A DNA stretch of 33,670 bases from Candidatus Binatia bacterium (GCA_036443615.1 JAZFYO010000326.1:1-33670); one strand, 5' to 3'. Shown: positions 851 through 20,104, counted from the stretch's first letter. A program made the numbers and translations. The notes: generated from the sequence alone by a model not told the origin.

Positions 851-1258
851 ATGAAAGACAAGAATAAGACCTTTTTCATAACTCTTGGCCTCTCGCTCCT
901 CTTACTCTCTGGTGGATCTCTCCATGCTGAGACGATGCGATTTACGGAGAATCTCCGCAGCGAGACAGTCCTACTTCCCCCGTCGGCGCCGGACCGAGGT
1001 CAACTTATCCTAATTTCCTTTGTCACGATCGCCGCTGAAGCAGAAGCCATAGTCACAATGGCTGTTTATGATGATCCTCAAACCAGATGGTCAGTCGATC
1101 TCTTGGAGCTTTATGATGAGGCAGGGGCTCTTCTGTCAGTTAGCTGGGTTGATAAATTCGGCATCCGCAGGACCGCCATGGACCGCGGACTTCTTCAAGA
1201 AGAGACTTCCAGGCTCGAGGGAGTTTTTGTCCTTCTTCCAGAAGGAACTCCAGCATGA
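851..1258 (+). CDS. exported protein of unknown function
   Basis: 135-aa ORF. AAGGAG lies about 10 nt upstream of the ATG. N-terminal signal peptide MKDKNKTFFITLGLSLLLLSGGSLHA|ET. No family recognised. Confidence 0.55.
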   Translation: MKDKNKTFFITLGLSLLLLSGGSLHAETMRFTENLRSETVLLPPSAPDRGQLILISFVTIAAEAEAIVTMAVYDDPQTRWSVDLLELYDEAGALLSVSWVDKFGIRRTAMDRGLLQEETSRLEGVFVLLPEGTPA

Positions 1259-1360
1259 AGATAGAAGCGCTGAGAAATCGGTTCTAACTGAAGACAGGTT
1301 AGGTTTGGCTGCGTAGACGAAATTAGAGTTACTGAAACAACCCAATGATGAGGGCTTCTC

Positions 1361-1438
1361 ATGAATCTGTTCATTTTCGTTTCCTTTATAACAGCGGTCA
1401 TTGTTTTCCTCATGGCATGGAATCTTTTCGACTCATGA
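1361..1438 (+). CDS. candidate 25-aa hydrophobic mini-protein (paralog 1)
   Basis: My own reading: ATG 1361, TGA 1436..1438, MNLFIFVSFITAVIVFLMAWNLFDS. GAGGG lies about 8 nt upstream. Same length as the 1770..1847 mini-ORF, and the two align at I14, V15, M18, W20 and F23. Confidence 0.25.
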   Translation: MNLFIFVSFITAVIVFLMAWNLFDS

Positions 1439-1769
1439 CAAGAAGAACAGAGACCGTGCGAGAAAAACAAACCTCAACGCTTTTTCTGCTTTGCTACCAG
1501 GGAAGGAAAAATGACGAAATTAATAAGTGATCACCGGAAATTGAGCATATGGAAGCTCATCTTCCTGAAAAGCAAGGTGAAGGGTGATTTTTACCGCATT
1601 GGGAACTTTCTCCTGGCCTCTCCTTGTTTAGCAAAGCAAAGGCCAAAGAAAGCCAAGTTCCTTACAGAGATCAAAGAGGAGTACCTGATACTTCTTGAAG
1701 GCAGGCAAGGTTTGGCGGCGCAGGAACTGGAGAATGAGAAGCTTCAAAAAAAACCGAGGAGAAATGATT

Positions 1770-1847
1770 ATGGAATCACTTGTTGTCCATCTCATCTTGG
1801 CATCGCTCATTGTATTGTTCATGGTTTGGATTTTTTTTACTGCTTGA
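1770..1847 (+). CDS. candidate 25-aa hydrophobic mini-protein (paralog 2)
   Basis: My own reading: ATG 1770, TGA 1845..1847, MESLVVHLILASLIVLFMVWIFFTA. Good SD, GAGGAG 8 nt upstream. Single predicted TM span. Confidence 0.3.
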   Translation: MESLVVHLILASLIVLFMVWIFFTA

Positions 1848-1953
1848 CGAGTGCCATAGAGATTGTGTGGGAGGGAAGTGCCTTCACAAATAAGTGAGAA
1901 TTGACACCTAAAATAAGAATAGAGGAGATGATCATTAAAGGAGGTTAATAGTT

Positions 1954-2577
1954 ATGTTTAATTCGTTCAATATTCCAAAAGCAATCATGGCTGGTTTCTT
2001 AGGAACGGTGGCCATGACCATCCTGATGTATGCTTGGCCTCTGATAGGCCTTCCCAGCATGGACATCATAGCCGCACTGGGGGGGGTGTTTCCCTTCAAT
2101 ATGTCACCTTACGTCCTGGGATCGCTGATTCATCTCAGCATAGGGATCTCAATGGCTCTGATCTATGCCTTGTTTTTTGCCTCTCGGCTACCCGGTCCAG
2201 GTTGGCTACGCGGTGCGCTGTTTTCCTTTCTTCCCTGGATTTTCGCCATAACTCTCTTCGGCCCAGGCCTTCAACTAGCCAGTGAATTCTTCAAGGGAAA
2301 AGAGGCCATTGCGGCCAACCCGTGCTCTATATCGCAGCCCTGTCAAGTCCGCCCAGCGAATCCTTGTGCGGTGAACCAACCCCGATCCAATCCATGCGCT
2401 GCAAAGGTAAGCAATCCATGTGGAGTCAGTGCCAATCCTTGCGCTGTGGCGAATCCCTGCGCAGTGACCACGGCGCCCTCTAGGGGGCCTTCCCCCCAAG
2501 TTATGAGCTTGATTGTCCACCTGCTCTTCGGTATGGTTCTAGGTGCCGCCTACAGACCTTCAGGTGAGTTAGTTTAA
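1954..2577 (+). CDS. integral membrane protein with a Cys-rich [N/Q]-P-C repeat loop
   Basis: 207-aa ORF with AAAGGAGG 7-8 nt upstream. About four hydrophobic helices in residues 1-110 and one C-terminal helix (LIVHLLFGMVLGAAY). They are separated by ANPCSISQPCQVRPANPCAVNQPRSNPCAAKVSNPCGVSANPCAVANPCAV (nt 2314..2466). No family name recognised. Confidence 0.75.
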   Translation: MFNSFNIPKAIMAGFLGTVAMTILMYAWPLIGLPSMDIIAALGGVFPFNMSPYVLGSLIHLSIGISMALIYALFFASRLPGPGWLRGALFSFLPWIFAITLFGPGLQLASEFFKGKEAIAANPCSISQPCQVRPANPCAVNQPRSNPCAAKVSNPCGVSANPCAVANPCAVTTAPSRGPSPQVMSLIVHLLFGMVLGAAYRPSGELV

Positions 2578-2578
2578 G

Positions 2579-3106
2579 ATGAAATTCGCGTTGCTTGGAC
2601 AATACCCGGGACTCCAATCTACATCTGAGAGAAGAACCCGCCTGTTTCGAAGAACGGTGCTGTGGACTTTGATGCTGTTCCTTCTGCCCACAGGACCGGT
2701 CTGGGCCGACTCCCACGTCACCAGTGAAAACGGAGTGGTGGTGGTGACCCTGACCCAGACCCCTTGCCTTTTTGTCGAGGCAGAGGCCAATCCCCAAACC
2801 TACCGCTCCAACAAAGCTGCGGAATGCATTGCCATCAACAAACACACCGCAGGTCAGCGCCAATTCATGCCTCTTCACTTAAGAGCCGGGAAAGTGATCT
2901 TCCGAGTCGCAAATAATAATGTCCCCTATGAGCTAGGCTTTTGGGTCCGGGGACAGGGACTCGGACGCGTCACCCTGCCCTCGGTGTCAGGCGGCGGGCT
3001 GATGCCTGGCCAGACCAAAGAGTACGCTATCACCTTAAAGAAGGGGGCATACTGGTACAGCTGCCCGCTGAATCCTACGCCCAACTATCCGCTCATCGTC
3101 GAATAG
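2579..3106 (+). CDS. exported cupredoxin-like protein (canonical Cu ligands not evident)
   Basis: 175-aa ORF. The ATG sits 1 nt after the upstream TAA, indicating translational coupling. RR-containing signal-like N-terminus (SERRTRLFRRTVLWTLMLFLLPTGPVWA|DS). The C-terminal YWYSCPLNPTPNYPLIVE resembles the Y-x-Y-x-C end of cupredoxins, but the His/Met ligand pattern is missing. Confidence 0.6.
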   Translation: MKFALLGQYPGLQSTSERRTRLFRRTVLWTLMLFLLPTGPVWADSHVTSENGVVVVTLTQTPCLFVEAEANPQTYRSNKAAECIAINKHTAGQRQFMPLHLRAGKVIFRVANNNVPYELGFWVRGQGLGRVTLPSVSGGGLMPGQTKEYAITLKKGAYWYSCPLNPTPNYPLIVE

Positions 3107-3389: not shown

Positions 3390-4598
3390 ATGAGTGAGGA
3401 GAGACAAGCACCCATCAAAGGAGTTAACAATACCAATAGTCGTGGATTAGATTTTGAAGAGGCGGTACTGCACCGCTATGAGAGTGCCGCCAAGGAGGCT
3501 GAGGCCGGCCTATGCGTTCCTGTCAGCTACGACTCTTCCCTTCTGAAAGTCATCCCTGAGGAGGTCATAGAAAAGGACTATGGTTGTGGAAACCCTTCTC
3601 AATACGTGAGGGAAGGGGAGACGGTACTTGATCTTGGCTCCGGGAGCGGGAAGGCCTGTTATATCATCTCACAGATTGTTGGCCCGAAGGGCAGGGTCAT
3701 CGGAGTAGACTTTAATGAGGAGATGCTAGCCCTGGCCCGCAAGTATCAAGAGACCGTCGGAAAGAAACTGGGCTATCATAACGTGGAGTTTCGCCGTGGT
3801 AGAATTCAAAACCTCAGGGTCAACCTGGATCTCCTCGATCAATACCTGGCGGCTAACCCTGTCCGTTCCGCCTCCGAGCTTCACAGGCTACGCGAATTTG
3901 AAGGGAAAATCTCGTGCGAAGACCCCATGATCCCAGACAATTCTATTGATGTCATCGTCTCTAACTGTGTGCTCAATCTGGTCCGGCCTGAAGATAAGAA
4001 GGAGCTGTTTTCTGAAATGTTTCGTGTGCTCAAAAGGGGAGGAAGGGCCATCATCTCGGACATCGTCAGCGATGAGCCAGTTCCGGGGCACCTGAAAATC
4101 GATCCCGATCTCTGGAGCGGGTGCGTCTCTGGTGCCCTTGAAGAGGAGGAATTTTTCCTCTCCTTTGAAGAGGCCGGTTTTTATGGAATCCATGTCGAAG
4201 AGATGAGGTCAGAACCCTACCAGACGGTGGAGGGAATCGATTTCCGCTCTATAACGATCTCTGCCTATAAAGGGAAAGAGGGGCCCTGTATCGAGAGAAA
4301 CCAAGCGGTGATCTACCGCGGCCCGTGGAAACAGGTCGTGGACGACGATAACCACGTCCTTCCCCGGGGGGTACGGATCGCCGTTTGTGATAAGACCTAC
4401 CAGATCTACTCCAAGCCGCCTTATCAGGATCAATTCATACCAATCCAGCCCAGGGAAGAGATTCCTCTGGAGAAGGCCGAGATATTTGACTGTGCCCGAA
4501 CGGACAGACGCCACCCGCGCGAGACCAAAGGAATGGATTACCAGGTGACACAGAGCCCTTCCGGTATCTGCGGACCTGGAGGCAACTGCTGCCCATAG
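3390..4598 (+). CDS. arsM: SAM-dependent As(III) methyltransferase (ArsM family) with a Cys-rich C-terminal extension
   Basis: 402 aa, with AAAGGAG upstream. ArsM hallmarks are present: DYGCGNP, SAM motif I VLDLGSGSGKA, SNCVLNLV and WSGCVSGA (positions of the As-binding cysteines). The tail ends GICGPGGNCCP. Confidence 0.8.
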   Translation: MSEERQAPIKGVNNTNSRGLDFEEAVLHRYESAAKEAEAGLCVPVSYDSSLLKVIPEEVIEKDYGCGNPSQYVREGETVLDLGSGSGKACYIISQIVGPKGRVIGVDFNEEMLALARKYQETVGKKLGYHNVEFRRGRIQNLRVNLDLLDQYLAANPVRSASELHRLREFEGKISCEDPMIPDNSIDVIVSNCVLNLVRPEDKKELFSEMFRVLKRGGRAIISDIVSDEPVPGHLKIDPDLWSGCVSGALEEEEFFLSFEEAGFYGIHVEEMRSEPYQTVEGIDFRSITISAYKGKEGPCIERNQAVIYRGPWKQVVDDDNHVLPRGVRIAVCDKTYQIYSKPPYQDQFIPIQPREEIPLEKAEIFDCARTDRRHPRETKGMDYQVTQSPSGICGPGGNCCP

Positions 4599-4678
4599 AG
4601 AGAGGAGAACTCCCATGCGGCCCTTTGCCCAAGAAATAAGGGAGGGCAGCTGCAGCGGGACCTTAATCCCTGAGGTCT

Positions 4679-5812
4679 ATGTTATTTTGGTCAATTATCA
4701 TTTTCAGCGCAACGATGTTCGTTGCCTACGCCAACGGGGCAAACGACAACTTTAAAGGAGTGGCCACACTTTTAGGAAGCGGGACGAGCGACTACCAAAA
4801 GGCCCTTTGGTGGGCCACGGTAACGACTTTTGCCGGCTCCATGACGGCATTATTTTTGGCCACAAAGTTAGTGGAAACCTTCCAGGGAAGGGGCCTTATT
4901 CCCGAAAGCCTGACAGGATCGGGGCCCTTTGCCGCTGCCGTCATTCTGGGAACGGGCCTAACGCTATTTTTGGCAACCAAGATCGGGGCGCCCATCTCAA
5001 CTACACACAGCCTAACAGGCGCTCTCATCGGAAGCGGCCTTATGGCTGTAGGTTCGGACTTTGGCTTTGTTGCTCTGTGGGACAAGTTTTTAATTCCGCT
5101 CCTTTTGAGCCCGTTGATAGCGGTGGGCTTGGCGGTTATCGTTTATCCCCTTTTCAGGCTCAGCGCTACCTTTATTGGTTTAACGAGAGAGACTTGCATC
5201 TGTGCAGGAGAGGAGCTCGTCCCCGTAGCCATTACACCGGGAGGACACTTCATGACTACCGGAACCAAGAGCGTGCAAGTTGTCGTGGATCAAGAAGCAA
5301 ACTGTGCGGAGAGCTATACGGAAAAGATTTTCGGTGTCAATGCCCAAACAGCCCTCGGCTCTCTTCATTATTTAAGCGCAGGGGCTTTAAGCTTTGCCAG
5401 AGGCCTCAACGACACCCCAAAGATCGTGGCCCTATCCCTGACTGCAGGAACTCTCGACCTACGTTGGTGTGTGTATCTGGTTGCACTTTTCATGGCTCTA
5501 GGCGGCCTGTTTCATGCGCAGAGAGTGGCTGAAACGATGAGCAAGAGAATCACAGAAATGGACTTCGGCCAAGGTTTCGCCGCCAACCTGGTTGCCAGTT
5601 TTCTGGTCATCTTTGCCTCGAGGTGGGGTCTTCCCGTTTCAACCACCCATGTTTCCTGTGGGGCCTTATTTGGGATCGGCGCAGTCAACGGCAAAGCCCG
5701 ATGGGGTGTCGTTCGAAGTATTGTCCTGGCCTGGGTGTTGACCCTCCCTGTCGCGGCACTGCTGTCGGGGGGGATATTCACGGTGTTGCAAGATCTCATC
5801 GGTAAAGGATGA
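4679..5812 (+). CDS. PiT-family inorganic phosphate/oxyanion transporter
   Basis: 377 aa and polytopic. The duplicated PiT signature is present (ANGANDNFKGVATL near the N-terminus, ARGLNDTPKIVAL in the second half), along with PISTTHSLTGA and PVSTTHVSCGA repeats. Confidence 0.85.
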   Translation: MLFWSIIIFSATMFVAYANGANDNFKGVATLLGSGTSDYQKALWWATVTTFAGSMTALFLATKLVETFQGRGLIPESLTGSGPFAAAVILGTGLTLFLATKIGAPISTTHSLTGALIGSGLMAVGSDFGFVALWDKFLIPLLLSPLIAVGLAVIVYPLFRLSATFIGLTRETCICAGEELVPVAITPGGHFMTTGTKSVQVVVDQEANCAESYTEKIFGVNAQTALGSLHYLSAGALSFARGLNDTPKIVALSLTAGTLDLRWCVYLVALFMALGGLFHAQRVAETMSKRITEMDFGQGFAANLVASFLVIFASRWGLPVSTTHVSCGALFGIGAVNGKARWGVVRSIVLAWVLTLPVAALLSGGIFTVLQDLIGKG

Positions 5813-5824
5813 CCTAAGCGGAAA

Positions 5825-7009
5825 GTGCAAAAGAAACTTATTAAAAACATGACCGCTTCTGTAAAGTCACATCTTCAAACAATTAGGTTCGACCGCAATG
5901 AGCTTTCGGGGGCATTTGGGGATATCGGCACAGACATGCCCCTAATTGTCGGGATGATCCTCGCCTCCAGGCTGGATAGTGCAAGTGTCTTGATCATGTT
6001 TGGCGCGATGCAGATCCTCACCGGTTTCACCTATAGGATTCCCATGCCCGTCCAGCCACTGAAGGCTATGGCGGCAATTGTGATTGCACAGAATTTGACT
6101 GGAAAAATTCTTTACGGAGGTGGGTTAGCTATAGGAATAACAATGCTCTTGTTAACAGTGACGGGATTAATTGATTGGCTAGGCCGAGTGATTCCCAAAA
6201 GCGTTATTCGAGGAATCCAGTTTGGATTGGGACTCAAACTCGCATCAATTGCACTCAAGAATTACGTGGGGGCGGATAGCATCCCTGGTTACTGGCTGGC
6301 AGCAATTGGCTTCGTGATAACTATCCTACTGATAGGTAACCGGAGGTATCCCCCAGCCATATTTGTCATAATTTTAGGCATCGTTTATGCTTTTTTCTTT
6401 AAATTAGACGCAGCCACGATAGTTCAAAGCGTAGGATTTAGCCTGCCTAATATTTATATGCCCACCTTACCGGATGTTTTTGCAGGGTTTCTAATTCTGG
6501 CGCTACCACAAATTCCACTCTCTCTTGGCAACTCGATATTTGCGACAAGGCAGATGACCCAAGACTTGTTTCCAGATCGATTAATTACTGTGCGTAAAAT
6601 AAGTCTCACCTATTCGTTGATTAATATTATCAACCCTTTCCTAAGCGGCATTCCTACCTGTCATGGCTCGGGTGGAATAGCGGGACATTATGCCTTCGGG
6701 GCGCGGACGGGGGGATCTGTAGTGATTTACGGTTTGATTTACCTGGTTTTAGGATTCTTTTTCAGCGGAGGCTTTGAAAAAGTTATTCAAGTTTTTCCTT
6801 TGCCTATTTTGGGGGTAATTCTTCTCTTCGAAGGTTTAACATTGATGCTTTTATTACGGGATGTTTCCGAGTCCAAGCAGGATTTCTCCATTGCTATATT
6901 GGTAGGACTGATGGCCAGCGGCCTGCCGTATGGTTTTGTTATTGGACTAATTGTCGGGACACTGTTGGCTTACCTGCCGCGAACGCGACTCGCCGGATTA
7001 GCAAAGTGA
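5825..7009 (+). CDS. putative sulfate/molybdate transporter (MOT1/SulP-like)
   Basis: 394 aa and polytopic. Has LSGAFGDIGTDMPL and CHGSGGIAGHYAFGARTGGS motifs, typical of MOT1-type (PF16983-like) transporters. The track start is GTG 5825; the in-frame ATG at 5849 is an alternative. Confidence 0.7.
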   Translation: MQKKLIKNMTASVKSHLQTIRFDRNELSGAFGDIGTDMPLIVGMILASRLDSASVLIMFGAMQILTGFTYRIPMPVQPLKAMAAIVIAQNLTGKILYGGGLAIGITMLLLTVTGLIDWLGRVIPKSVIRGIQFGLGLKLASIALKNYVGADSIPGYWLAAIGFVITILLIGNRRYPPAIFVIILGIVYAFFFKLDAATIVQSVGFSLPNIYMPTLPDVFAGFLILALPQIPLSLGNSIFATRQMTQDLFPDRLITVRKISLTYSLINIINPFLSGIPTCHGSGGIAGHYAFGARTGGSVVIYGLIYLVLGFFFSGGFEKVIQVFPLPILGVILLFEGLTLMLLLRDVSESKQDFSIAILVGLMASGLPYGFVIGLIVGTLLAYLPRTRLAGLAK

Positions 7010-7146
7010 AGGAATCGTGGCGACGGACTTTGCACCTTCGCCTAATACGGGCATTGCAGATCACTTGGTTCGCCGAAACGCTTCGCACTTCGCAAGGCCT
7101 GAAAACGCTATGCGAAACCTTAGAGTGAACCTATAAGTTCTGGAGG

Positions 7147-8697
7147 ATGACAATGTCACCCACGATCAGAGAGATCCCAACGGCGATCCGTCACATGATG
7201 ATCGGAGACGACCCTTTCGATCACCAGCTCATCGAAAACTGCCATCCCTCGAATTGGATCAATCCAACGGCCTCCGGCAAGTATAACCTGGTTGTTGTCG
7301 GAGCCGGCACGGCCGGATTAGTCAGCGCTGCCGGCGCTGTCGGGCTAGGGGCCAAGGTAGCCCTCATCGAAAGGACCCTGCTAGGCGGCGACTGCCTGAA
7401 CGTGGGCTGTGTCCCTTCCAAGGGGATGATCCGGGCCTCTCGAGCCGCCTTTGACGTCCTGGATGGGAGTACGTTTGGAGTTCACCTCAACTCCGCGCCT
7501 GGAATTAACTTTTCGGAAGCGATGGAGCGCATGCGCCGGCTCAGAGCCAACATCAGCAAAAATGACTCCGTCCACCGGTTCAAGAATCTGGGGGTTGACA
7601 TCTATCTTGGAAATGCAAAGTTTGTTGGTCCTTCCACCCTAGAGGTCGATGCTGCCTCCCTGGAATTTGACCGTGCTGTGATCGCTACTGGGGCAGCCCC
7701 CGCGAAGTCATCCATCCCTGGTCTGGAGGAAGCCGGCTTCTACACCAATGAGACCATCTTTACCCTGACCGAACTTCCGCGCCGGATGGTAGTTGTCGGG
7801 GCAGGTCCCATCGGTTGTGAGCTGGCCCAATCGTTCCAACGGTTTGGAAGCCAGGTCACCTTGCTAACGCACGGCACACGGATCCTACCCCAGGAGGACG
7901 GCGACGCCGCCGCAGCCATTTGCAGGCAGATGGAGCGTGAGCGGATGCGAATCCTCTATAGTGCCGTGCCTTTACAGGTGAAGAAGAGAGGGTCAGAAAA
8001 AATCCTGTTGCTCTCGCGCGATGGACGGGAAGAAGAGCTGGTCTGTGATGCCATCCTCGTCGGGATCGGCCGCAAGCCCAACGTAGAGGGGCTGGGACTG
8101 GAGGCAGCCGGCGTAAAGTTTTCTCCCAACGGCGTAGCGGTAGATAACCGGCTGCGGACGACGAATCCGCGCATCTACGCCGCAGGCGATATCTGCTCCC
8201 GCTTCAAGTTCACCCATGCCGCCGACGCAATGGCACGCATCGTTCTCGCAAACGCGCTATTCTTCGGGCGCCGTAAAGCAAGTGCCTTGACCATACCTTG
8301 GTGTACCTACACCGATCCGGAAGTCGCTCATGTAGGGTACTACGAAGCCGAGGCGCGCACGGCAGGTATCGAGGTGGCTACCCTCACGGAGAAACTCAGC
8401 CACAATGACCGCGCCATCTTAGATGGTGAGGGTGAGGGATTCGCCCGGATCCATTACAACAGGAAGGATGGTAAAATCCTCGGTGGAACCATCGTAGCCC
8501 GCCATGCAGGAGAAATGATCGGCGAGCTGACCCTGGCCATAACGACAGGGCAAAAGGTAAGCGTTCTCGCATCCACCATTCACCCCTATCCTACTCAGGC
8601 TGAAGTACTGAAAAGGATCGGCGACGACTATATGCGGCAGAGACTCACACCAACTTTAAAGAAGATATTCGAGAGGTGGTTTGCCTGGAAAAGGTAG
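7147..8697 (+). CDS. class I pyridine nucleotide-disulfide oxidoreductase (MerA/Lpd-like flavoprotein disulfide reductase)
   Basis: 516 aa. Has FAD GxGxxG (VVVGAGTAGL), the redox-active GGDCLNVGCVPSK, NAD(P)H-binding VVVGAGPIGCE, and the dimerisation motif HPYPTQAE. There is no NmerA domain and no C-terminal Cys pair, so I do not call it MerA. GGAGG abuts the ATG at 7147, so the ATG at 7153 is the more likely start. Confidence 0.85.
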   Translation: MTMSPTIREIPTAIRHMMIGDDPFDHQLIENCHPSNWINPTASGKYNLVVVGAGTAGLVSAAGAVGLGAKVALIERTLLGGDCLNVGCVPSKGMIRASRAAFDVLDGSTFGVHLNSAPGINFSEAMERMRRLRANISKNDSVHRFKNLGVDIYLGNAKFVGPSTLEVDAASLEFDRAVIATGAAPAKSSIPGLEEAGFYTNETIFTLTELPRRMVVVGAGPIGCELAQSFQRFGSQVTLLTHGTRILPQEDGDAAAAICRQMERERMRILYSAVPLQVKKRGSEKILLLSRDGREEELVCDAILVGIGRKPNVEGLGLEAAGVKFSPNGVAVDNRLRTTNPRIYAAGDICSRFKFTHAADAMARIVLANALFFGRRKASALTIPWCTYTDPEVAHVGYYEAEARTAGIEVATLTEKLSHNDRAILDGEGEGFARIHYNRKDGKILGGTIVARHAGEMIGELTLAITTGQKVSVLASTIHPYPTQAEVLKRIGDDYMRQRLTPTLKKIFERWFAWKR

Positions 8698-8701
8698 GGA
8701 A

Positions 8702-9355
8702 ATGACGGCAACCAGAAGAAAAATACTAATCTTTTCGGGACTCCTAGTGCTTATCGGGTTAGCCTACTGGCAGCGGAGCCACTTACGGATAGAACTCCTG
8801 GTGGAACAGATCAGGGCCCTGGGTCCATGGGGACCGGCGGCCTATATTATTCTCTACCTCATCGCCCCACCCCTTTTCATCCCTGGTTCCGTCATCACCC
8901 TTGCGGGAGGAGCTCTCTTTGGACCACTCTGGGGAACCCTCTACACCATCTTCGGAGCAACCGGTGGCGCCTCTCTGGCCTTCCTCATCGGACGCTACCT
9001 GGCCGGAGATTGGGTCGAGAACAAAGCCAAGGGAATATTGAAACGTCTAAAGGACGGTGTGGAAAAGGAGGGGTGGCGTTTTGTTGCCTTCACCCGATTA
9101 GTCCCGCTTTTCCCATTCAATGTTTTGAACTACGCCTTCGGTCTAACTAAGATCAGGTTCTTTCACTTCGTGGCTGCCTCCTTCTTCTGCATGCTCCCCG
9201 GGGCCGCGGCTTACACATTTATCGGCTATGCAGGACGTGAGGCAGCTCTGGGAGGAAAAGGATTGGTATTCAAAATAGCTGCCGCATGTGGGCTTGTTCT
9301 ATTCGTATTCATGCTTCCCAGACTTATCAAGGCCGTAAAAGGAGATAGCAAATAG
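8702..9355 (+). CDS. TVP38/TMEM64 (DedA-superfamily) membrane protein
   Basis: Motif LFIPGSVITLAGGALFGPLWGTLYTIFGATGGASLAFLIGRYL. The track start is TTG 8681, which overlaps the upstream gene; I prefer the in-frame ATG at 8702 (MTATRRKILIF...). Confidence 0.8.
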   Translation: MTATRRKILIFSGLLVLIGLAYWQRSHLRIELLVEQIRALGPWGPAAYIILYLIAPPLFIPGSVITLAGGALFGPLWGTLYTIFGATGGASLAFLIGRYLAGDWVENKAKGILKRLKDGVEKEGWRFVAFTRLVPLFPFNVLNYAFGLTKIRFFHFVAASFFCMLPGAAAYTFIGYAGREAALGGKGLVFKIAAACGLVLFVFMLPRLIKAVKGDSK

Positions 9356-9365
9356 GCTTCCTCGA

Positions 9366-10046
9366 ATGCTGCGTATCTCGGTTATTATTCCAGCGCTGAA
9401 CGAAGAGAGCATAATTGCCTCGACACTAGAGGCCCTCAGGCCGCTAGCACCGACGGAGGTTATTGTGGTTGATGGCGGAAGCACGGATCACACCAGGGAA
9501 ATAGTTGCGCGTACAGACGCCACGTTAGCCTCTTCCGCACGCGGGCGAGCAGAGCAGATGAATCACGGAGCTAGGCTGGCTCGCGGCGATGTCTTCCTTT
9601 TCCTCCACGCAGATACCCACCCCCCCCCCTCCGCCATAAGTGAAATCCGGTGTGCCCTGGAGGACCCTCGATGTGTAGGAGGAAGATTTGATGTGAGGCT
9701 CGAGGGTAATCATAGGATCTATGGGCTGATTGGCGCCCTGATCAATCTCCGCTCCCGCTTGACTAAGGTAGCCACGGGAGATCAAGCAATTTTTGTCCGC
9801 CGAGAAGTATACGAAGAAATCGGAGGGTTTCCGAACCTCCCCTTAATCGAGGATATCGCCTTTTCCCGTTACCTAAAGAAAAAAGGGAAGGTGGCCTGTC
9901 TCAAGAGTCGGGTTACGACATCCACACGTCGATGGGAAAGGGAGGGGATATGGCAGACTGTTCTAAGAATGTGGGCGCTCAGGCTTCTCTACTTGGCAGG
10001 TGTATCTCCATTCCGCCTTAAGCGCTTCTACGGCGATGCCCGCTAA
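9366..10046 (+). CDS. family-2 glycosyltransferase, TIGR04283-like
   Basis: 226 aa. Motifs: SVIIPALNEE, VVDGGSTD, LFLHADT, GDQAIFVRR, PLIEDIAFSR, TSTRRWE. Size and motif order match what I recall of TIGR04283; no HMM was run. Confidence 0.7.
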   Translation: MLRISVIIPALNEESIIASTLEALRPLAPTEVIVVDGGSTDHTREIVARTDATLASSARGRAEQMNHGARLARGDVFLFLHADTHPPPSAISEIRCALEDPRCVGGRFDVRLEGNHRIYGLIGALINLRSRLTKVATGDQAIFVRREVYEEIGGFPNLPLIEDIAFSRYLKKKGKVACLKSRVTTSTRRWEREGIWQTVLRMWALRLLYLAGVSPFRLKRFYGDAR

Positions 10047-10050
10047 AGAG

Positions 10051-10641
10051 CTAAGGCAAGCCCCTTAACGCCTGCAAGACCTGTTCATTGCTTGCCCTCT
10101 TTCTGTAGTCCACCTCGACAAATTTCCAACGCACCACTCCCCCCTTGTCGATCACATAGGTTGCGGGGTGGGGCCATCCAGGACCGTCAGGATTCAGAAT
10201 CCCATAACGGTCGATCACCTTGTGTTTTTTGTCCTCGAGCAGAGGAAAATCAAAATCTCCCGGATATTCTTTTCTCAGATCCAAAACAAACTTTTTCGAT
10301 TGCTCATGGGAATCGATACTAACGGCCAGTATCCGAACCCTTTCTTTCAATTTCTTTGTCAAGAGACTTTTCAGCTTCCCGAGCTGCTCTCCGCACCACG
10401 GTCACCAATGGCCACGGTAAAAAACAAGGACCACATTCATTTTGCCGCGAAAATCGGAAAGCGAAATTGCCCTCCCGTCCATATTTTCTAAGGTAAAATC
10501 CGGCGCCCTGTCCCCGACCTTAACTCTCTCCAAATCTGTGAGTCTTAAACCGGCCTTATCTTTGGGTCCTAACTGGGCGTATACTGAAGATATTAAAAGG
10601 AATATCAGTAATACCAAAGTATTGAAGGTGTGTTGAACCAT
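10051..10641 (-). CDS. exported AhpC/TSA (redoxin) family protein with in-frame UGA, a probable selenocysteine (U80)
   Basis: Track ORFs 10402..10641 and 10051..10362 are in the same frame, separated only by TGA (10402..10404). Read-through gives ...[21 protein letters not shown]...[12 protein letters not shown]...[11 protein letters not shown]..., with UGA at the first Cys of the W-C-x-x-C motif. The N-terminal signal peptide is [22 protein letters not shown]. Confidence 0.7.
10361..10391 (-). promoter_or_regulatory. candidate bacterial SECIS hairpin
   Basis: Minus-strand RNA starting 11 nt after the UGA: GAGAG-CAGCU-[CGGGA]-AGCUG-(AAAAGU bulge)-CUCUU. The G-rich apical loop begins about 20 nt after the UGA. 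Folded by eye only. Confidence 0.45.
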
Positions 10642-10731
10642 CGTTCCCCCTCTCTAATCCTAACAACCACGGTTGCTGATCCTCGGTTCCCCCAACCCTG
10701 AAAATTGACCAGCTTTTTCACGCTAAATTGC

Positions 10732-10810: not shown

Positions 10811-13258
<2,448 letters not shown>

Positions 13259-13338
13259 CTTTTTGACGGCCAGTACGCTTAGAGACCAGGAGGCTATTCC
13301 GCTTCCTGGCTTTCCAGATTCCTAGCAGTAACCTAATT

Positions 13339-15798
13339 ATGGAAGCCAGCCTTAAGCAGCAAAAGGTGCCCGTCTATATTGAAGACGAGATGCGTCAGTC
13401 CTATATGGACTACGCGATGAGCGTCATCATTGGCAGGGCGCTGCCGGATGTACGCGATGGCCTAAAGCCGGTGCATCGGCGAGTTCTCTATGCCATGTAC
13501 GATATGGGAAATAGCTGGAACAACCCCTACAAAAAATCCGCCCGCCTGGTTGGCGACGTGATCGGAAAGTACCATCCTCATGGCGACGTGGCAGTCTATG
13601 ACACTATCGTGCGCATGGCCCAGGATTTTTCCATGCGTTACCTTTTGGTGGATGGACAGGGGAACTTCGGCTCGGTAGATGGGGATCCTCCGGCCGCCAT
13701 GAGATACACGGAGATCCGGATGGCGCAAATGGCCGGGGAGATCTTGGCCGATATCGAGAAAGATACCGTCAATTTTGTTCCCAACTACGATGACTCCATA
13801 AGTGAACCTACCGTCCTTCCTTCCCGCATTCCTACCCTCTTAATCAATGGTGGCTCGGGAATCGCGGTGGGGATGGCTACCAATATCCCGCCGCACAACC
13901 TAGGAGAAGTCGTGGACGGTTTGGTGGCCATGGTGGAAAAGCCGGATATCAGCATCGATGAACTCATGAACTACATTCCGGGCCCCGACTTTCCCACGGG
14001 GGCTTACATCCACGGCCGGGAGACCATCCGCCAAGCGTACAGGACAGGCCGAGGATCCATCCAGATGCGAGCAAGGTTCTCAACCGAGACGGTAAAGCGG
14101 ACAGGCAGAGAGCAAATCATTATCCATGAGATTCCCTTCTTGGTGAACAAGGCCCGTCTCATCGAGCAGATCGCGGGGCTAGCACAGGAGAAGAAGGTCG
14201 ATGGCATTGCAGACTTGCGCGACGAATCTGACCGGGAAGGGATGCGAGTTGTGATCGAACTCAAGCGCGACGCCGTGCCAGACGTGCTCATCAATCAGCT
14301 TTACAAGCATACATCCTTACAGGAGTCCTTTGGGGTCAATATGCTGGCCATCGATGACGGCCGACCCAGGCTCCTCAATCTGAAAGATGCCTTGAAGGCC
14401 TTCCTGGATCACCGCAGTGAAGTGGTGACTCGCAGAACCGCGTATGACCTGCGCAAGGCGGAGGAACGTCTGCACATCCTGGAAGGGTTAAAGATTGCGT
14501 TGGACCACTTAGATCAGGTCATCACGCTCATTCGGCAATCCACTGATCCCAAGACCGCCAAGGAAGGTCTTATGGCCAGCTTTGGTTTGTCGGACGTTCA
14601 GGCTCAGGCAATCCTGGAGATGCGGCTGCAGAGGTTGACGGGGTTGGAAAGAGAAAAGATTGTCAAAGAGCACCAGGAAACCACGGAGAACATCAACCAA
14701 CTACGGGCGATTCTGGCAGACGAGAGAGAAATCTTTCGAATTATTGTCGAGGAGATCAAGGATATCAAGGAACGGTACGGAGACCCGCGGCGAACCGAGA
14801 TTGTGGATCAATCAGAGGAGATCTCGGTGGAGGACCTCATCGTCGATGAAGACATGGTGGTCACCGTATCCCACGAAGGCTATATCAAGCGTAACCCGGT
14901 TACGCTTTATCGGGCGCAACACCGGGGTGGAAAAGGGAAAGTTGGGGCGACGACGAGGGACGAGGATTTTGTCGAATATCTCTTCGTTGCCTCCACCCAT
15001 GCCTACATTCTCTTCTTTACCACCATTGGGAAAATCTACTGGATAAAGGTCCATGAACTCCCCCAGGCCGGAAGGGCCGCTAGGGGGAGACCTATCGTTA
15101 ACCTCCTCCACCTAGGAGAAGGAGAGAAGGTTTCGGCCTTTCTCCCGGTCCGTGAATTCCAGGAAGGACACTTTGTTCTCTTTGCAACCAAAGGTGGATT
15201 AGTCAAAAAAACCGAGCTCATGGCTCATTCCAATCCACGGTCCACAGGGACTCGCGCGATCGCCCTGGAGCCAAAAGACGAGGTCATCGGTGTCCGCCTC
15301 ACCGACGGACAACAGGCGGTCCTCCTCTCAACCCTATCGGGCCAGTCCATTCGCTTCAAAGAAGAGCAGGTCCGTGCCACCGGTAGGGGAACCTATGGAG
15401 TTATCGGGGTCAACTTGGACAAAGGCGATCAGGTGGTGAGCATGGAGATCCTGAACCAACAGGCCAGCATCTTAACCGTGGCGGAGAACGGTTACGGTAA
15501 GCGCACCGGCATTGACGAGTACCGTCCCCAATCGCGCGGGGGTAAAGGGATCATCACGATGAAGACCACTAAAAAGACCGGGCACGTGATCGGGGTTCAG
15601 CAAGTAACCGATGATGACCAGCTCATGCTGGTAACAAATCGAGGCAAGATTATTCGCCTTAGGCTTAAAGACATCAGGACGATCGGGCGGAACACCCAGG
15701 GGGTCCGTCTTATCGAGATGGAAGAGGGCGAGCGGGTCGTCTCGCTCGCAAGGGTGGCGGAGAAGGAAGATGAGGACAAACTTCCGCAGGCTCAATGA
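13339..15798 (+). CDS. gyrA: DNA gyrase subunit A
   Basis: 819 aa. Motifs: [12 protein letters not shown], the QRDR-type [14 protein letters not shown], active-site AAMRYTE, the GyrA-box-like QHRGGKGK, and a repeated beta-pinwheel C-terminal domain. Confidence 0.97.
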
Positions 15799-15809
15799 AA
15801 AATGCAGAT

Positions 15810-15836
15810 TGTAAAATTTAAATTTTAAATTTTACA
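15810..15836. repeat. perfect 13-bp inverted repeat around a central T (27-nt palindrome), almost pure A/T
   Basis: TGTAAAATTTAAA-T-TTTAAATTTTACA, followed by TTTT. Lies between the gyrA stop (15798) and the gpsA start. Confidence 0.6.
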
Positions 15837-15856
15837 TTTTGCCTTCAATAGTGGCC

Positions 15857-16864
15857 ATGGGCCAAGCAATAGGGATTATTGGCGCTGGAGGCTGGGGGAC
15901 GGCCCTGAGTAAGCTGCTGTGTGAGAAAGGAGAAGATGTCAGCCTCTGGTGTCATGGAGAAGATACCTACCGCAATATTCGGGAGAATAGGGAAAATCGA
16001 TCTTACCTCCCTGGCGTTACCCTTCCACGCGCTCTTAAGCTCAGCCGCTCCCTAGAAGAAACGGTCTCTGGGAAGAGTATTCTTCTCTGCGTAGTTCCGT
16101 CCCATGCGGTGCGCAAGGTGATGCAGGGTACAGTATCCCATGTAGCGCCACACGCAACCTTGGTTTGCGGGACCAAGGGGATAGAGGAGGGGACCCTCAT
16201 GACCATGGGCGAGGTTATGGTCGATATCTTTGGCTTGTCCAAGAAGGAGAGGCTTGTCTTCCTTTCCGGTCCGACCTTTGCCCTTGAAGTAGCTCGCGGC
16301 CTACCTACGGCCATCACGCTGGCCAGCTTTAATGATGATGTGGCCAGGGATATTCGAGAAACACTGAGCACCCAGAGCCTTAGGATCTATACATCACGTG
16401 ATGTTGTTGGAGTACAGATGGGTGGGGTAGTCAAAAACGTGATCGCCATTTCCGCAGGTATCAGCGATGGGTTGTCCCTCGGTTATAATGCGCGCGCCGC
16501 TCTGATTACCCGTGGATTGGCTGAGATGACCCGATTAGCAATCAAGATGGGATCGGACCCCCGCACTCTTTCGGGACTTCCCGGACTGGGAGACCTGATA
16601 CTGACATGTACGGGAGACCTGAGTCGAAATCGCTGGGTGGGCCTGGAGATCGCCAAGGGTCGCAAGCTTGGCGACATTCTATCTGGCATGAGCATGGTTG
16701 CCGAGGGGGTACGCAATACCAGGTCGCTCCGCCTCCTGGCCCAACGGCTCGGAGTTGAGATGCCCATTGTGGAACAGATGTCCCTGGTCCTTTACGAAAA
16801 CAAGAAGCCCATGGAGGCCGTGCGCGACCTAATGCAGCGTACGCTCAAGCCTGAGGTACCTTGA
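15857..16864 (+). CDS. gpsA: NAD(P)H-dependent glycerol-3-phosphate dehydrogenase
   Basis: Has the N-terminal Rossmann motif IGIIGAGGWGTALS, and later GPTFALEVARGLPTA, GVVKNVIAI and GDLILTCTG. The track start at 15839 is TTG; I prefer the in-frame ATG at 15857 (MGQAIGIIGAG...). Confidence 0.9.
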   Translation: MGQAIGIIGAGGWGTALSKLLCEKGEDVSLWCHGEDTYRNIRENRENRSYLPGVTLPRALKLSRSLEETVSGKSILLCVVPSHAVRKVMQGTVSHVAPHATLVCGTKGIEEGTLMTMGEVMVDIFGLSKKERLVFLSGPTFALEVARGLPTAITLASFNDDVARDIRETLSTQSLRIYTSRDVVGVQMGGVVKNVIAISAGISDGLSLGYNARAALITRGLAEMTRLAIKMGSDPRTLSGLPGLGDLILTCTGDLSRNRWVGLEIAKGRKLGDILSGMSMVAEGVRNTRSLRLLAQRLGVEMPIVEQMSLVLYENKKPMEAVRDLMQRTLKPEVP

Positions 16865-16969
16865 AACAGAGATGTGCTGCTCGAAGGCCCGCAGAGGGCA
16901 AAATTGACAACGGGGAAGGTCTATGATTCAAATAAAGAACTATGGTTCTGTGCAGATTGAAAGATTGGT

Positions 16970-17131
16970 ATGAAGCGGACCTATCAACCGAGTAACATAA
17001 GGCGAAAGAGGACCCACGGATTCCTTGAAAGAATGGATTCCCCTGGGGGCCGCAAAGTCCTAAAACGGAGAAGGGCGAAAGGGCGTAAAAAACTGACTGT
17101 TGTGGTGCCTCCGAAGCAGGCCCGCTCATAG
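16970..17131 (+). CDS. rpmH: 50S ribosomal protein L34 (with a C-terminal extension of about 9 aa)
   Basis: Not in the track (53 aa). My reading: [53 protein letters not shown]. The canonical L34 core is followed by VVPPKQARS. Confidence 0.9.
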
Positions 17132-17145
17132 AACGGAGCGGACAG

Positions 17146-17496
17146 TTGTCGATGAGCCGGGAAAGGTTCCCGAAAAGGACCCACCTTACCAGACGCTCTG
17201 ATTTCCTCAGCCTCTCACGCGGAGGGAAGACGGTCTACACCCCTCACTTCATCGTCATAAGCAAGGCAAACGATAGGCGAGTTGATAGACTCGGCATCAC
17301 GGTCAGCGCGAAGGTGGGAAAGGCAGTGGTCCGCAATCGGGTCAAGAGACTCTTAAGGGAGTTTTACCGCAGGCAGCAGAACCCTCTCTCCCCCCATCGG
17401 GACTTCCTGATCATTGCGAGAAAGAGGGCTGGAGACCTATCCACCCATGAGATAGCCCGGGAACTGGGAAAGGCCTTCGCCGCCCCACGGAGATAA
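17146..17496 (+). CDS. rnpA: ribonuclease P protein component
   Basis: Sits immediately after rpmH. Basic 116-aa protein with VGKAVVRNRVKRLLRE (the RNR motif). The track start is TTG 17146; the in-frame ATG at 17152 is an alternative. Confidence 0.9.
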   Translation: MSMSRERFPKRTHLTRRSDFLSLSRGGKTVYTPHFIVISKANDRRVDRLGITVSAKVGKAVVRNRVKRLLREFYRRQQNPLSPHRDFLIIARKRAGDLSTHEIARELGKAFAAPRR

Positions 17497-17503
17497 AACA
17501 GGT

Positions 17504-17725
17504 ATGGTCAAACTGGTAAAGAGAGTCATTATTCTTTTGCTTATTGGGTACCGCCATTATTTGTCTCCGCTGCTGCCCCCCACCTGCCGCTTCTTCCCCA
17601 GCTGTTCCGGCTATACCCTTGAGGCCGTTCAACGACACGGGGGCATGAAGGGTCTCTGGCTTGGCCTGCGCCGGCTCCTGCACTGCCATCCCTTTCACCG
17701 AGGTGGCTACAACCCTGTCCCATAA
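17504..17725 (+). CDS. yidD: membrane protein insertion efficiency factor YidD
   Basis: 73 aa. Has YRHYLSPLLPPTCRFFPSCSGY...HCHPFHRGGYNPVP, the canonical YidD pattern, in the conserved position between rnpA and yidC. Confidence 0.9.
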   Translation: MVKLVKRVIILLLIGYRHYLSPLLPPTCRFFPSCSGYTLEAVQRHGGMKGLWLGLRRLLHCHPFHRGGYNPVP

Positions 17726-17733
17726 AATTTCTC

Positions 17734-19353
17734 ATGGAAAAAAACGCCCTCATAGCCATCGTTCTCTCCGTCTTGATTATCATCCTCTATCAATCATGGG
17801 TGAGTCGCTATTACGAACCTCCTCCCTCACCGATACAAGGGGAAGAAGAACCAAAAGAGGTCGCTCGCTTCCCAAAACCCTTGCGCAAGCTCCCTGAGCC
17901 CAAAGTGAAAATCAGCCCCACAGGTGCACAGCGGACAGCTAGGGACATCAAGGTCGAGACCGATCGGTACACGGCCATACTTACCAATCGCGGGGCGCGC
18001 CTGAAGAGTTTGCTCCTGAAGCAATACCGCGTCTCAGTCGAGGAGCAGAGCCCTCCCGTAGAGATGATCTCCTCTACACCGGGAGTCCCCTATCCACTGG
18101 GGATCCAGGTCCATGACCCAGTGCCTTTTAACGATGAGGAGATGGTTTACGATATCAAGAGTTATAGCCTGAGGCTCGCCGGTAATGCCAAAGGGACTCT
18201 CACCTTCCAAGGCCAGACCCCACAGGGGACAAGCTTGATCAAGAAGTTTACCTTTACCGGCTCCAGTTATGTGATCGAGCTAGAGGTCTCTATTGGAGGC
18301 GCGGACGGCTCTACACCTCCAAGCCTGCTTCTGAGCACCGGTGGAAAGAACAAAAACCTCACCCGGGATGCCATATTCGAAGGGCTACTGGCCCTCGCGG
18401 ATGGAAAGCTGATTCGCGAAGATGGAGAAGCGCTTAGCGAGGGGAAATATTTGAACGGCCAGATCTCCTGGGCCGGCTTTGGTTATACTTATTTTCTCTT
18501 TGCCTTGCTTCCCGAGGATGAGGGAAATCAGACACTCAGGGTAACCTCGACCGGACCCGGACTTCTGATGGACCTCGGAGGACAAACCGGAACGGGTGCG
18601 GGCGGAAAGACTCGCTACACCCTCTTCATAGGCCCCAAGGACTCCGATCATTTAAAGACTGTGGGAAGGGGATTGGAACGGTCCATTGATCTCGGCTGGT
18701 GGCTGTTTGCCATTGTCTCTGCTCCCGTACTCCAGATGCTGCGCTTCTCCCACCGCTATACGGGCAGCTACGGCCTCGACATTATCCTCCTCACCATCCT
18801 TATCAAGCTCCTCCTGGCCCCCCTGACACAAAAGAGCTTTGTCTCGATGAAGGCGATGCAAAAGCTGCAACCACAGATGCAGCGTATCAGGGAGAAATTC
18901 AAGGACGAAAAGGAGAAGATGAACAAAGAGATCATGGAGCTCTACAAGCGCAATAAGGTAAACCCCTTGGGTGGCTGTCTCCCGATGCTGCTCCAGATGC
19001 CGGTCTTTATCGGTCTCTACAATGCGCTGCGCACCCCCATTGAGCTGCGGCACGCCAATTTTCTGTGGATCAAAGACCTCTCACGTCCGGACTGGGAGTC
19101 CCTGCCCATAACCCTGATGGATTGGAATGTAGGGATTCCGATCCTGGTCCTTTTTATGGGCGCCAGCATGTTCGTGCAGCAATGGATGACCCCCACTGCC
19201 GGAGACCCCAATCAGAAGCGGATGATGTACATGATGCCGGTAGTTTTTACGGTAATGTTCGTGAATTTCCCTTCCGGGTTAACCATCTACTGGCTGGTGA
19301 ATAATGTCCTAACCATAGCGCAGCAGTACCTGATTAACCGTATGACCAAATAG
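17734..19353 (+). CDS. yidC: membrane protein insertase YidC
   Basis: 539 aa. N-terminal TM, a large periplasmic domain, then a conserved C-terminal core (LLTILIKLLLAPLTQKS, GGCLPMLLQMPVFIGLY, PSGLTIYWLVNNVLTIAQQ). Confidence 0.95.
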   Translation: MEKNALIAIVLSVLIIILYQSWVSRYYEPPPSPIQGEEEPKEVARFPKPLRKLPEPKVKISPTGAQRTARDIKVETDRYTAILTNRGARLKSLLLKQYRVSVEEQSPPVEMISSTPGVPYPLGIQVHDPVPFNDEEMVYDIKSYSLRLAGNAKGTLTFQGQTPQGTSLIKKFTFTGSSYVIELEVSIGGADGSTPPSLLLSTGGKNKNLTRDAIFEGLLALADGKLIREDGEALSEGKYLNGQISWAGFGYTYFLFALLPEDEGNQTLRVTSTGPGLLMDLGGQTGTGAGGKTRYTLFIGPKDSDHLKTVGRGLERSIDLGWWLFAIVSAPVLQMLRFSHRYTGSYGLDIILLTILIKLLLAPLTQKSFVSMKAMQKLQPQMQRIREKFKDEKEKMNKEIMELYKRNKVNPLGGCLPMLLQMPVFIGLYNALRTPIELRHANFLWIKDLSRPDWESLPITLMDWNVGIPILVLFMGASMFVQQWMTPTAGDPNQKRMMYMMPVVFTVMFVNFPSGLTIYWLVNNVLTIAQQYLINRMTK

Positions 19354-19381
19354 AACCGACTCTGCTGGAGGTAGTTTATTC

Positions 19382-20104
19382 ATGGATCACGTGGAAGCAG
19401 AAGGTGAAACCATTGACGCAGCTATAGAGAACGCCCTGAATACTCTAGGAGTAGAGCGCGAGCGAGTGACGGTCGAAATTCTCACCGACGGGAAAAAGGG
19501 AATTTTCGGAATCGGAGCACGCAAGGCCAAAGTACGAGTCTCGCTGCGAAGGGCCTTGATCCTAGACATGGAAGCCCGGGAAGAAAAACAGCCTCCTGCA
19601 GACAGAACAACGGAGAAAAGTGTATCCGCAGTGGGGGAAAGGGGAAAGGAAATATTGGCCGAGATCCTTAGGCTGATGGGAATGCAAGCATCGATCGAGA
19701 TTAAATCTGGAGAGACCGAGGAAGAGATAGTTCTCAACATCCGTGGAGAGAACGGCGGCCTTCTGATCGGACGCAGGGGACAGACCTTGGAAGCGTTGCA
19801 GTACATCCTCACTCGCGCGGTGGGGGAAAGGCCTGGGACGGAAGGCCCGCAACTCATCGTGGACACCGAAAATTACCATGACCGCAGGAAAAAGACACTG
19901 GAGGACATGGCCCTGCGGCTGGGGGAAGAGGCCAAGAGGAAAAGGAAGTCTGTCGGCATAGACTCCCTTAGCGCACGCGACCGCCGCATCATTCACCTAG
20001 CCCTGGAAGATGACCCCTGGCTTACTACTAAAAGTCTGGGCAAAGGGGCCTATCGCCGTCTTCTCATCATCCCTGAAGGGGACAGGAAGAAAAAGGAGCA
20101 ATAA
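19382..20104 (+). CDS. jag: Jag/KhpB-type RNA-binding protein (Jag_N, KH and R3H domains)
   Basis: 240 aa, directly after yidC. Has a KH-like region (GGLLIGRRGQTLEALQYIL) and an R3H region (LSARDRRIIHLAL). GGAGG lies 11 nt upstream. Confidence 0.85.
   Translation: MDHVEAEGETIDAAIENALNTLGVERERVTVEILTDGKKGIFGIGARKAKVRVSLRRALILDMEAREEKQPPADRTTEKSVSAVGERGKEILAEILRLMGMQASIEIKSGETEEEIVLNIRGENGGLLIGRRGQTLEALQYILTRAVGERPGTEGPQLIVDTENYHDRRKKTLEDMALRLGEEAKRKRKSVGIDSLSARDRRIIHLALEDDPWLTTKSLGKGAYRRLLIIPEGDRKKKEQ

Follow-up and report, generated by a model that had tools for sequence, protein, structure and literature searches.

The window analysed here is a stretch of 33,670 nucleotides from a Candidatus Binatia bacterium (GCA_036443615.1, JAZFYO010000326.1:1-33670). 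Between positions 10051 and 10641 its minus strand carries what appears to be a complete gene for the precursor of a selenoprotein with a peroxiredoxin (Prx) fold and a U-x-x-C active site, U being selenocysteine (Sec). The segment is a single frame of 196 codons that opens with the ATG at 10639..10641 and closes with the TAG at 10051..10053. The sole stop within it is the TGA at 10402..10404, codon 80, where selenocysteine would be inserted. A purine-rich stretch resembling a Shine-Dalgarno sequence, GAGAGGGGG (10646..10654, minus strand), lies 4 nt 5' of the ATG and may direct initiation there.

Public gene calls (contig JAZHCB012118080.1 of metagenome assembly GCA_044232445.1) divide this locus into one gene of 79 residues and another of 103, which correspond to the open reading frames (ORFs) 10402..10641 and 10051..10362, the latter opening at TTG 10362. 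An earlier, sequence-only reading of this DNA had claimed that the two are one gene and that the joined product has a contiguous AhpC/TSA/redoxin fold. Both claims hold. The ORFs lie in the same frame with nothing but the TGA between them, and when Cys is substituted at codon 80 the Pfam matches to AhpC-TSA (PF00578; 2.3e-33, residues 42-172) and to Redoxin (7e-22, residues 41-188) each run across the TGA. When all six frames of the window were scanned for two ORFs linked through a single TGA, this was the only credible case; the other pairs were spurious antisense or out-of-frame combinations.

The identity of the residue encoded by this TGA is indicated by its homologs. A protein search returned 2767 relatives, the best 120 of which were classified by the residue at the TGA position. 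Eighty carry F-Y-R-G-x-W-C-P-x-C and share about 45-53% identity with the window protein. The sequence-only reading had placed the UGA at the first Cys of a W-C-x-x-C motif and had proposed alignment to Cys-containing homologs as a check; in that alignment the U column is the Cys of W-C-P-x-C in all 80. Another 22 relatives, closer to the window protein than the Cys homologs (50-73% identity), have Trp at the critical position. They stem from short contigs whose genes were called by JGI and ENA, evidently with TGA translated as Trp under genetic code 4. The remainder include 17 C-terminal fragments of 113 residues that start just 3' of the TGA position and a Logan-derived protein (P0016) with Ser at the Sec position. 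Trp-for-Sec calls of the form FYRGHW-W-PYC, seen among relatives P0001-P0023, silently hide selenoproteins in protein databases.

At the DNA level the TGA is the rule. With each GTDB species represented by one genome, a scan yielded 559 relatives; not one of the best 80 loci lacks an in-frame TGA, which occupies the same codon in 79 and lies a codon earlier in one (L041). These loci belong mostly to Binatia and "Deltaproteobacteria", with the rest in Acidobacteriota/Blastocatellia, Methylomirabilota, Verrucomicrobiota and Chloroflexota. Metagenomes contribute about 60 more distinct sequences with the in-frame TGA, and these Sec-type genes then total 139-142 distinct sequences. Even a metagenome scan seeded with Cys-type sequences returned mainly TGA forms; it yielded five Cys-type genes by a first motif pattern and nine on a wider re-scan, which together with five more distinct sequences from contigs encoding Cys homologs make up a Cys-type DNA set of 14. 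Two loci are irregular. The TGA of L041:10001-10588 falls one codon early (G-H-U-W-P-Y-C versus G-H-W-U-P-Y-C), and L038:10001-10549 has an additional TAG at the Gln codon where the hairpin described below begins; these could be real variants, products of decay or assembly errors.

A conserved in-frame TGA may also be a sense codon for a standard amino acid, whether Trp under code 4, Gly under code 25, or Trp or Cys supplied by near-cognate read-through in a SelB-free manner. The 22 Trp-bearing database calls have the appearance of such a case, and no Sec machinery was found in the window or in 1.36 Mb of related loci. However, homologs with a genuine sense codon show Cys there and never Trp or Gly. 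UGA is not reassigned in this genome to judge from the window, because TGA terminates nine of its 19 other Pfam-supported genes and is internal to none of them. Moreover, a conserved, covarying hairpin at the position of a selenocysteine insertion sequence (SECIS) has no role in simple read-through, and known selenoprotein families are represented in relatives by several more genes with TGA at a Cys position. Decoding as a standard amino acid is accordingly rated improbable.

These other genes bear on the decoding capacity of the lineages concerned. In the relatives' loci, TGA replaces a Cys codon in OsmC-like genes (U-L-L-T, 11 loci), DUF3179 genes (W-U-P-L-C, six loci), AhpD/CMD-like genes (C-S-Y-U, six loci) and a cytoplasmic Prx-like paralog (four loci), and the OsmC-like, AhpD-like and DUF3179 proteins are all named in the selenoprotein literature. 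Their presence is an indirect sign that these lineages decode Sec. In locus L003 (5921-9856) four putative selenoprotein genes lie within 4 kb, the Prx-like gene being accompanied by DUF3179 (7440-8543), OsmC-like (8623-9123) and AhpD/CMD-like (9248-9856, minus strand) genes. Similar clusters occur in L004, L006, L007, L018, L021, L051 and others; the window is without them. In four loci (L021:9274-9765, L018 near 3155, L046 near 1769 and L051 near 9461) a second Prx-like UxxC gene, which has no signal peptide, precedes the main gene by about 800 nt. Its product reads FYRGSW-U-PYC...LADFQSH and matches Pfam AhpC-TSA at 2.9e-22, and its hairpin, ACUGCCUUCGGCAGU, begins only 4-5 nt past the UGA, nearer than the standard SECIS spacing.

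The second line of evidence is an RNA element within the coding sequence. The core of the SECIS-like hairpin, CAGCUCGGGAAGCUG (10372..10386, minus strand), has a 5-bp stem and the apical loop CGGGA and coincides with codons +6 to +10 (Q-L-G-K-L) after the UGA. Across the family this 15-nt core has the form CAGCU(N)GGN(N)AGCUG, begins 15 nt past the UGA and presents its loop at 20 nt. In a gap-free alignment of the 57 nt from the UGA in 139 distinct sequences, RNAalifold finds one conserved structure, which is this hairpin (columns 19-33). Pairing at the five core positions (CAGCU/AGCUG) reaches 99.6%. At a sixth pair, 78 sequences have C-G, 13 have U-A and three have G-C, and 45 are unpaired; at a seventh, 53 have U-A and 12 have G-C. 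The covariation score was reached by none of 500 shuffles, and the pairing is lost when the partners are slid against each other.

Because the core encodes Q-L-G-(E/K)-L, constraint on the protein was tested as the cause of its conservation. Codon choice argues otherwise. All 141 Sec-type sequences use CAG for Gln+6, and 139 of the 141 use CTG for Leu+10; at codon +9 GAG, AAG and CAG occur, but GAA, AAA and CAA never do. Outside the core these genes use CAG for 63% of their Gln residues and CTG for 33% of their Leu residues, with GAG and AAG at 52-57%. The joint codon pattern of the core is present in 138 of 142 Sec-type genes, compared with 9% expected from their own codon usage, and the palindrome occurs in only one of the 14 Cys-type genes. 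By these comparisons the core is near-invariant at synonymous sites, and in Sec-type genes only.

The sequence-only reading had drawn a longer hairpin, GAGAGCAGCUCGGGAAGCUGAAAAGUCUCUU (10361..10391, minus strand; -7.2 kcal/mol), starting at the 11th nucleotide past the UGA. A hairpin does exist there and its core is the conserved element. Its lower stem (GAGA/UCUC, 10388..10391 with 10363..10366) was rejected as specific to the window, only 47% of its cells being paired across homologs. The conserved part agrees with the geometry of the bacterial SECIS model, which specifies a loop of 3-9 nt, an upper stem of 4-16 bp, a spacing of 16-37 nt between UGA and loop, a G within the first two loop positions and an energy of at most -7.5 kcal/mol (PMC13188914). 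With a 5-bp stem, a CGGGA loop containing the G and 20-nt spacing, the window element has every geometric feature of the model. The energies of the family have a median of -8.5 kcal/mol, and 58% pass the threshold. The element nevertheless differs from the bacterial consensus (the bSECISearch model, of the E. coli fdhF type): the stem that is conserved is a very short one of 5-7 bp, its sequence hardly varies from phylum to phylum, in contrast to most SECIS elements of bacteria, and the window copy falls 0.3-0.4 kcal/mol short of the energy threshold.

Such features raise the question of whether the palindrome CAGCU..AGCUG is maintained as a DNA site, or for some other RNA-binding regulator, with Sec insertion served by another element. 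A very short stem that is near-invariant across phyla and of borderline energy would suit a binding site of that kind. The palindrome is, however, restricted to TGA-containing genes, sits at the canonical distance with the required loop G, and is the only conserved structure that RNAalifold sees in the 57 nt after the UGA. A purpose unrelated to UGA recoding is therefore assigned a low probability.

The frame downstream of the TGA was compared with that of relatives. The ratio of nonsynonymous to synonymous substitution rates (dN/dS) 3' of the TGA is 0.07-0.18 (0.18 against L001 and 0.13 against L003), values that place the downstream frame under purifying selection and mark this half as translated. 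The sequence-only reading had expected no decay beyond the TGA, and the low ratios, the absence of further stops and the TGA in every one of the 80 GTDB loci bear it out. They also speak against a pseudogene, that is, a Cys-type redoxin gene struck by a nonsense mutation and left with a decaying or unexpressed downstream ORF. The division of the locus into two ORFs by public gene calls and the lack of significant structure in a single-sequence fold would be in keeping with such a history. Yet about 140 distinct genes have the in-frame TGA at this site, dN/dS beyond it is about 0.1-0.2, the relatives show neither frameshifts nor ratios near 1, and the hairpin is specific to Sec-type genes, so that loss of function is highly improbable. 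Scarcely credible as well is a split redoxin, in which the UGA would terminate a 79-residue N-terminal peptide and a C-terminal domain would be initiated independently: TTG at 10362 does open a 103-residue ORF and the 113-residue database fragments begin at varied codons, but the cut would fall in the active-site UxxC turn and leave a C-terminal piece devoid of a signal peptide, the internal starts (M, L or V at differing positions) are not conserved and reflect gene-caller choices, and no Shine-Dalgarno sequence is visible before 10362.

The active site combines features of two protein families. The relevant segment of the read-through is R-G-H-W-U-P-W-C, containing the thioredoxin-like redox motif U80-P-W-C83 (10393..10404, minus strand). 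Searched as a single sequence, the protein has its best PDB matches in ResA and the pneumococcal Etrx proteins. In the ResA alignment U80 and C83 fall on the CxxC, and Pro159 of G-W-P-H-P-A-T (codon at 10165..10167, minus strand) falls on the second Pro of the G-P-L-P-T loop, presumably the cis-proline of the fold. With a family profile the best match is instead AhpE of M. tuberculosis (5.7e-21), whose V-F-F-P-L-A-F-T-G-I-C aligns gap-free with V-F-Y-R-G-x-W-(U/C)-P-x-C and places C83 on the peroxidatic Cys and U80 on the Thr. From the canonical peroxiredoxin signature P-x-x-x-T/S-x-x-C only the peroxidatic-Cys column is kept. The Pro is replaced by Arg76 and the Thr by Sec (Cys in homologs), and at the position of the catalytic Arg of peroxiredoxins (Arg116 of AhpE) stands Pro159, which is invariant in two homolog alignments.

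The AlphaFold model of the Cys homolog P0094, standing in for the window protein, has a peroxiredoxin fold (mean predicted local distance difference test score, pLDDT, 88) and is closest to AhpE, with a target-normalised template-modelling score (TM-score) of 0.87. No NCBIfam model reaches its cut-off: ResA scores best at 71.7 bits against 170, and PrxU (48.7 against 270), TlpA (36.4 against 230) and DsbE (33.2 against 123) fall short as well. The absence of the peroxiredoxin Pro, Thr and Arg, together with Sec at the Thr position, points to a thioredoxin-like UxxC oxidoreductase. The scaffold resembles that of a peroxiredoxin, and the residues that define the chemistry are those of a thioredoxin-like CxxC enzyme. 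The peroxiredoxin-like label given by the sequence-only reading is right as to the AhpC/TSA fold, and its W-C-x-x-C framing is right because those three residues are missing and Sec occupies the Thr of PxxxTxxC. As a label for a canonical peroxiredoxin it fails on the same residues.

Comparison with known systems narrows the assignment. The Prx-like thiol:disulfide oxidoreductase selenoproteins of Zhang and Gladyshev ("Prx-like protein" or "Prx-like 1"; reference WP_010940744.1) are defined by PF00578 with UxxC in place of TxxU, and the window protein has both the domain (2.3e-33) and U-P-W-C. The likeness, drawn from the description of that class, extends to Cys homologs and to a hairpin directly 3' of the UGA. 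The window clade differs in its signal peptide and in its distribution, which is concentrated in uncultured lineages of soil and groundwater, Binatia and Acidobacteriota among them. The Prx-like selenoprotein was first listed in 2005, with 225 sequences in the Global Ocean Sampling (GOS) survey and 28 organisms in a 2016 survey, and the class is described as "predicted with high confidence", not experimentally verified. Exported thiol-oxidoreductase selenoproteins have likewise been described already. The selenocysteine peroxiredoxin PrxU (NF040737) shares the fold superfamily and a Sec in the active-site turn, but its Sec is the peroxidatic residue (TxxU), whereas the window protein keeps a Cys there and has Sec in place of the Thr (UxxC). 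TlpA/ResA/CcmG (DsbE)-type proteins and Etrx share W-C-x-x-C at a helix start, the Pro loop and an exported location; the window protein differs from the TlpA/ResA/CcmG type in having Sec for the first Cys and a structure nearer to AhpE-type peroxiredoxins. AhpE is at once the best profile match and the best structural match of the modelled Cys homolog, yet it has P-L-A-F-T-G-I-C and Arg116 where the window family has R-G-x-W-(U/C)-P-x-C and a Pro. The literature searched held no paper mentioning selenocysteine together with Binatia.

The N-terminus suggests where the enzyme would act. Residues 1-22 (10576..10641, minus strand) form a predicted signal peptide of the general secretory (Sec-translocon) type, recognised by its hydrophobic core and V-x-A site and followed by QLGPKD. 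A hydrophobic core, a small residue-x-A and then QLGPKDG are common to Sec-type and Cys-type homologs. In the model of P0094 the N-terminal helix is of low confidence. The sequence-only reading had taken the hydrophobic N-terminus to imply a periplasmic location; the signal-peptide-like pattern is indeed conserved in homologs, and export by the secretory pathway would follow from it. The Cys-type genes suggest a redox partner. In 11 of the 14 Cys-type loci (L164-L170, L082-L085, L091 and L137 are among the 14) the gene adjoins dsbD, divergently transcribed; the encoded protein is about 745 residues long and carries DsbD_N, DsbD_TM and Thioredoxin_7. AhpC/TSA, DSBA, DUF2911 or DUF3179 genes often come next in these loci. 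Periplasmic TlpA-like proteins and an envelope peroxiredoxin are known to draw electrons from transporters of the DsbD family (PMC3322552).

Together these results present a model, held at a probability of roughly 0.9, in which 10051..10641 is one functional gene encoding an exported UxxC selenoprotein through SECIS-dependent recoding of UGA. Translation would start at the ATG at 10641 and reach UGA-80, at which point the mRNA beyond the ribosome would fold into CAGCU-CGGGA-AGCUG, its loop 20 nt past the UGA, and act as a bacterial SECIS. By the standard bacterial mechanism the hairpin would recruit SelB-GTP-Sec-tRNA(Sec), so that selenium is incorporated as selenocysteine and termination does not occur. 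The 196-residue precursor would lose its 22-residue signal peptide during export through the translocon. In the cell envelope the mature protein would serve as a thioredoxin-like U-x-x-C thiol:disulfide oxidoreductase on an AhpE-like peroxiredoxin scaffold, in which the U80 selenolate would attack the substrate and C83 would resolve the intermediate via a selenylsulfide. Re-reduction would probably fall to a DsbD/CcdA-type membrane electron transporter, as the Cys-type relatives suggest.

Several observations weigh against this model. The signal peptide of the window sequence has no basic n-region. In flanks of up to 10 kb, neither dsbD nor ccdA stands beside any of about 149 Sec-type genes. 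Searches of the window and of 1.36 Mb of related loci, by ARAGORN for tRNA-Sec and by tblastn with E. coli SelD and SelB as probes, found no selA, selB, selD or tRNA-Sec, a null that is uninformative because only flanks of up to 10 kb were covered. Rfam, searched at gathering thresholds and at a permissive E-value, gave no SECIS or other relevant family. The hairpin itself is a weak example of its kind: the sixth pair in the window is a C.A mismatch, placing it among the 45 unpaired sequences, and the energy of -7.1 to -7.2 kcal/mol is just short of -7.5. Folding of this sequence by itself lends no thermodynamic support, which the sequence-only reading had named, along with conservation, among its tests: 81 nt give z = -0.09. 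Within 64 nt of context a competing structure on the UGA-adjacent nucleotides is favoured, and the core pairs form with a probability of only 1.4%. That competing fold was set aside since it uses the 10 nt that a ribosome would cover at recoding. Once these 10 nt are left out, the minimum-energy structure contains the core, whose pair probability is then 0.6 (family median 0.93). The support for the hairpin is comparative and does not come from single-sequence folding.

The surroundings of the gene were compared among relatives. The nearest genome locus, L001 (JACZXR010000009.1), is syntenic with the window, and its GyrB is 89% identical. Neighbour clustering around Sec-type genes returned short-chain dehydrogenase/reductase (SDR), ketoacyl-synthase and methyltransferase genes and no conserved redox partner. 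A plus-strand block at 3390-10046 keeps its synteny with the Prx-like gene in L001 and partly in L004, L008, L010 and L011. It encodes a 402-residue S-adenosylmethionine (SAM) methyltransferase, a PHO4 phosphate transporter and a MOT1-type molybdate transporter, followed by a 516-residue pyridine-nucleotide disulfide oxidoreductase, a DedA/VTT membrane protein and a GT2 glycosyltransferase. Ahead of this block, at 851-3106 (plus strand), are four small ORFs of 135, 128, 207 and 175 residues with one Pfam match among them (DUF6789, 4e-12). On the other side, 10829-20104 (plus strand) and 20299-20721 (minus strand) hold gyrB, gyrA, gpsA, rpmH (about 16990-17130), rnpA, yidC and jag, a housekeeping set such as commonly lies close to a replication origin; dnaA and dnaN are absent from it, and a scan near rnpA-yidC-jag found no cluster of DnaA boxes. 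The roughly 1 kb that follows jag contains a minus-strand gene for an RRM_1 RNA-binding protein.

Taken at its plainest, the gene is an exported, soil-lineage addition to the already described class of Prx-like UxxC selenoproteins, genuine but unremarkable. The protein class was described in 2005-2008, and nothing in the known selenoprotein mechanism is changed. A larger reading, tentative and rather doubtful, is that the Sec-type genes belong to a separate clade of exported selenoproteins, very widespread among bacteria of soil and groundwater from several phyla, in which Sec forms far outnumber Cys forms. On that same doubtful footing, the clade would be marked by a minimal, near-invariant SECIS, CAGCU-N-GGN-N-AGCUG, locked into the codons for Q-L-G-(E/K)-L, and by the lack of dsbD linkage. 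If true, it would suggest a gene-plus-SECIS module that spreads horizontally, and possibly an envelope selenol redox pathway with a reductant or substrate unlike those of the DsbD-fed Cys enzymes.

The consequences for annotation and for the family are more immediate. Because the ORFs are split, the Trp calls are silent and NCBIfam has no model for the protein, hundreds of such genes in Binatia, Acidobacteriota and related metagenome-assembled genomes are probably mis-annotated. The family also offers a test case for SECIS function, with about 140 sequences whose stem is frozen at synonymous sites and Cys forms that are without the stem. For the organisms themselves, the finding would extend the use of selenocysteine, and of an exported selenol-based redox enzyme, to abundant uncultured lineages of soil.

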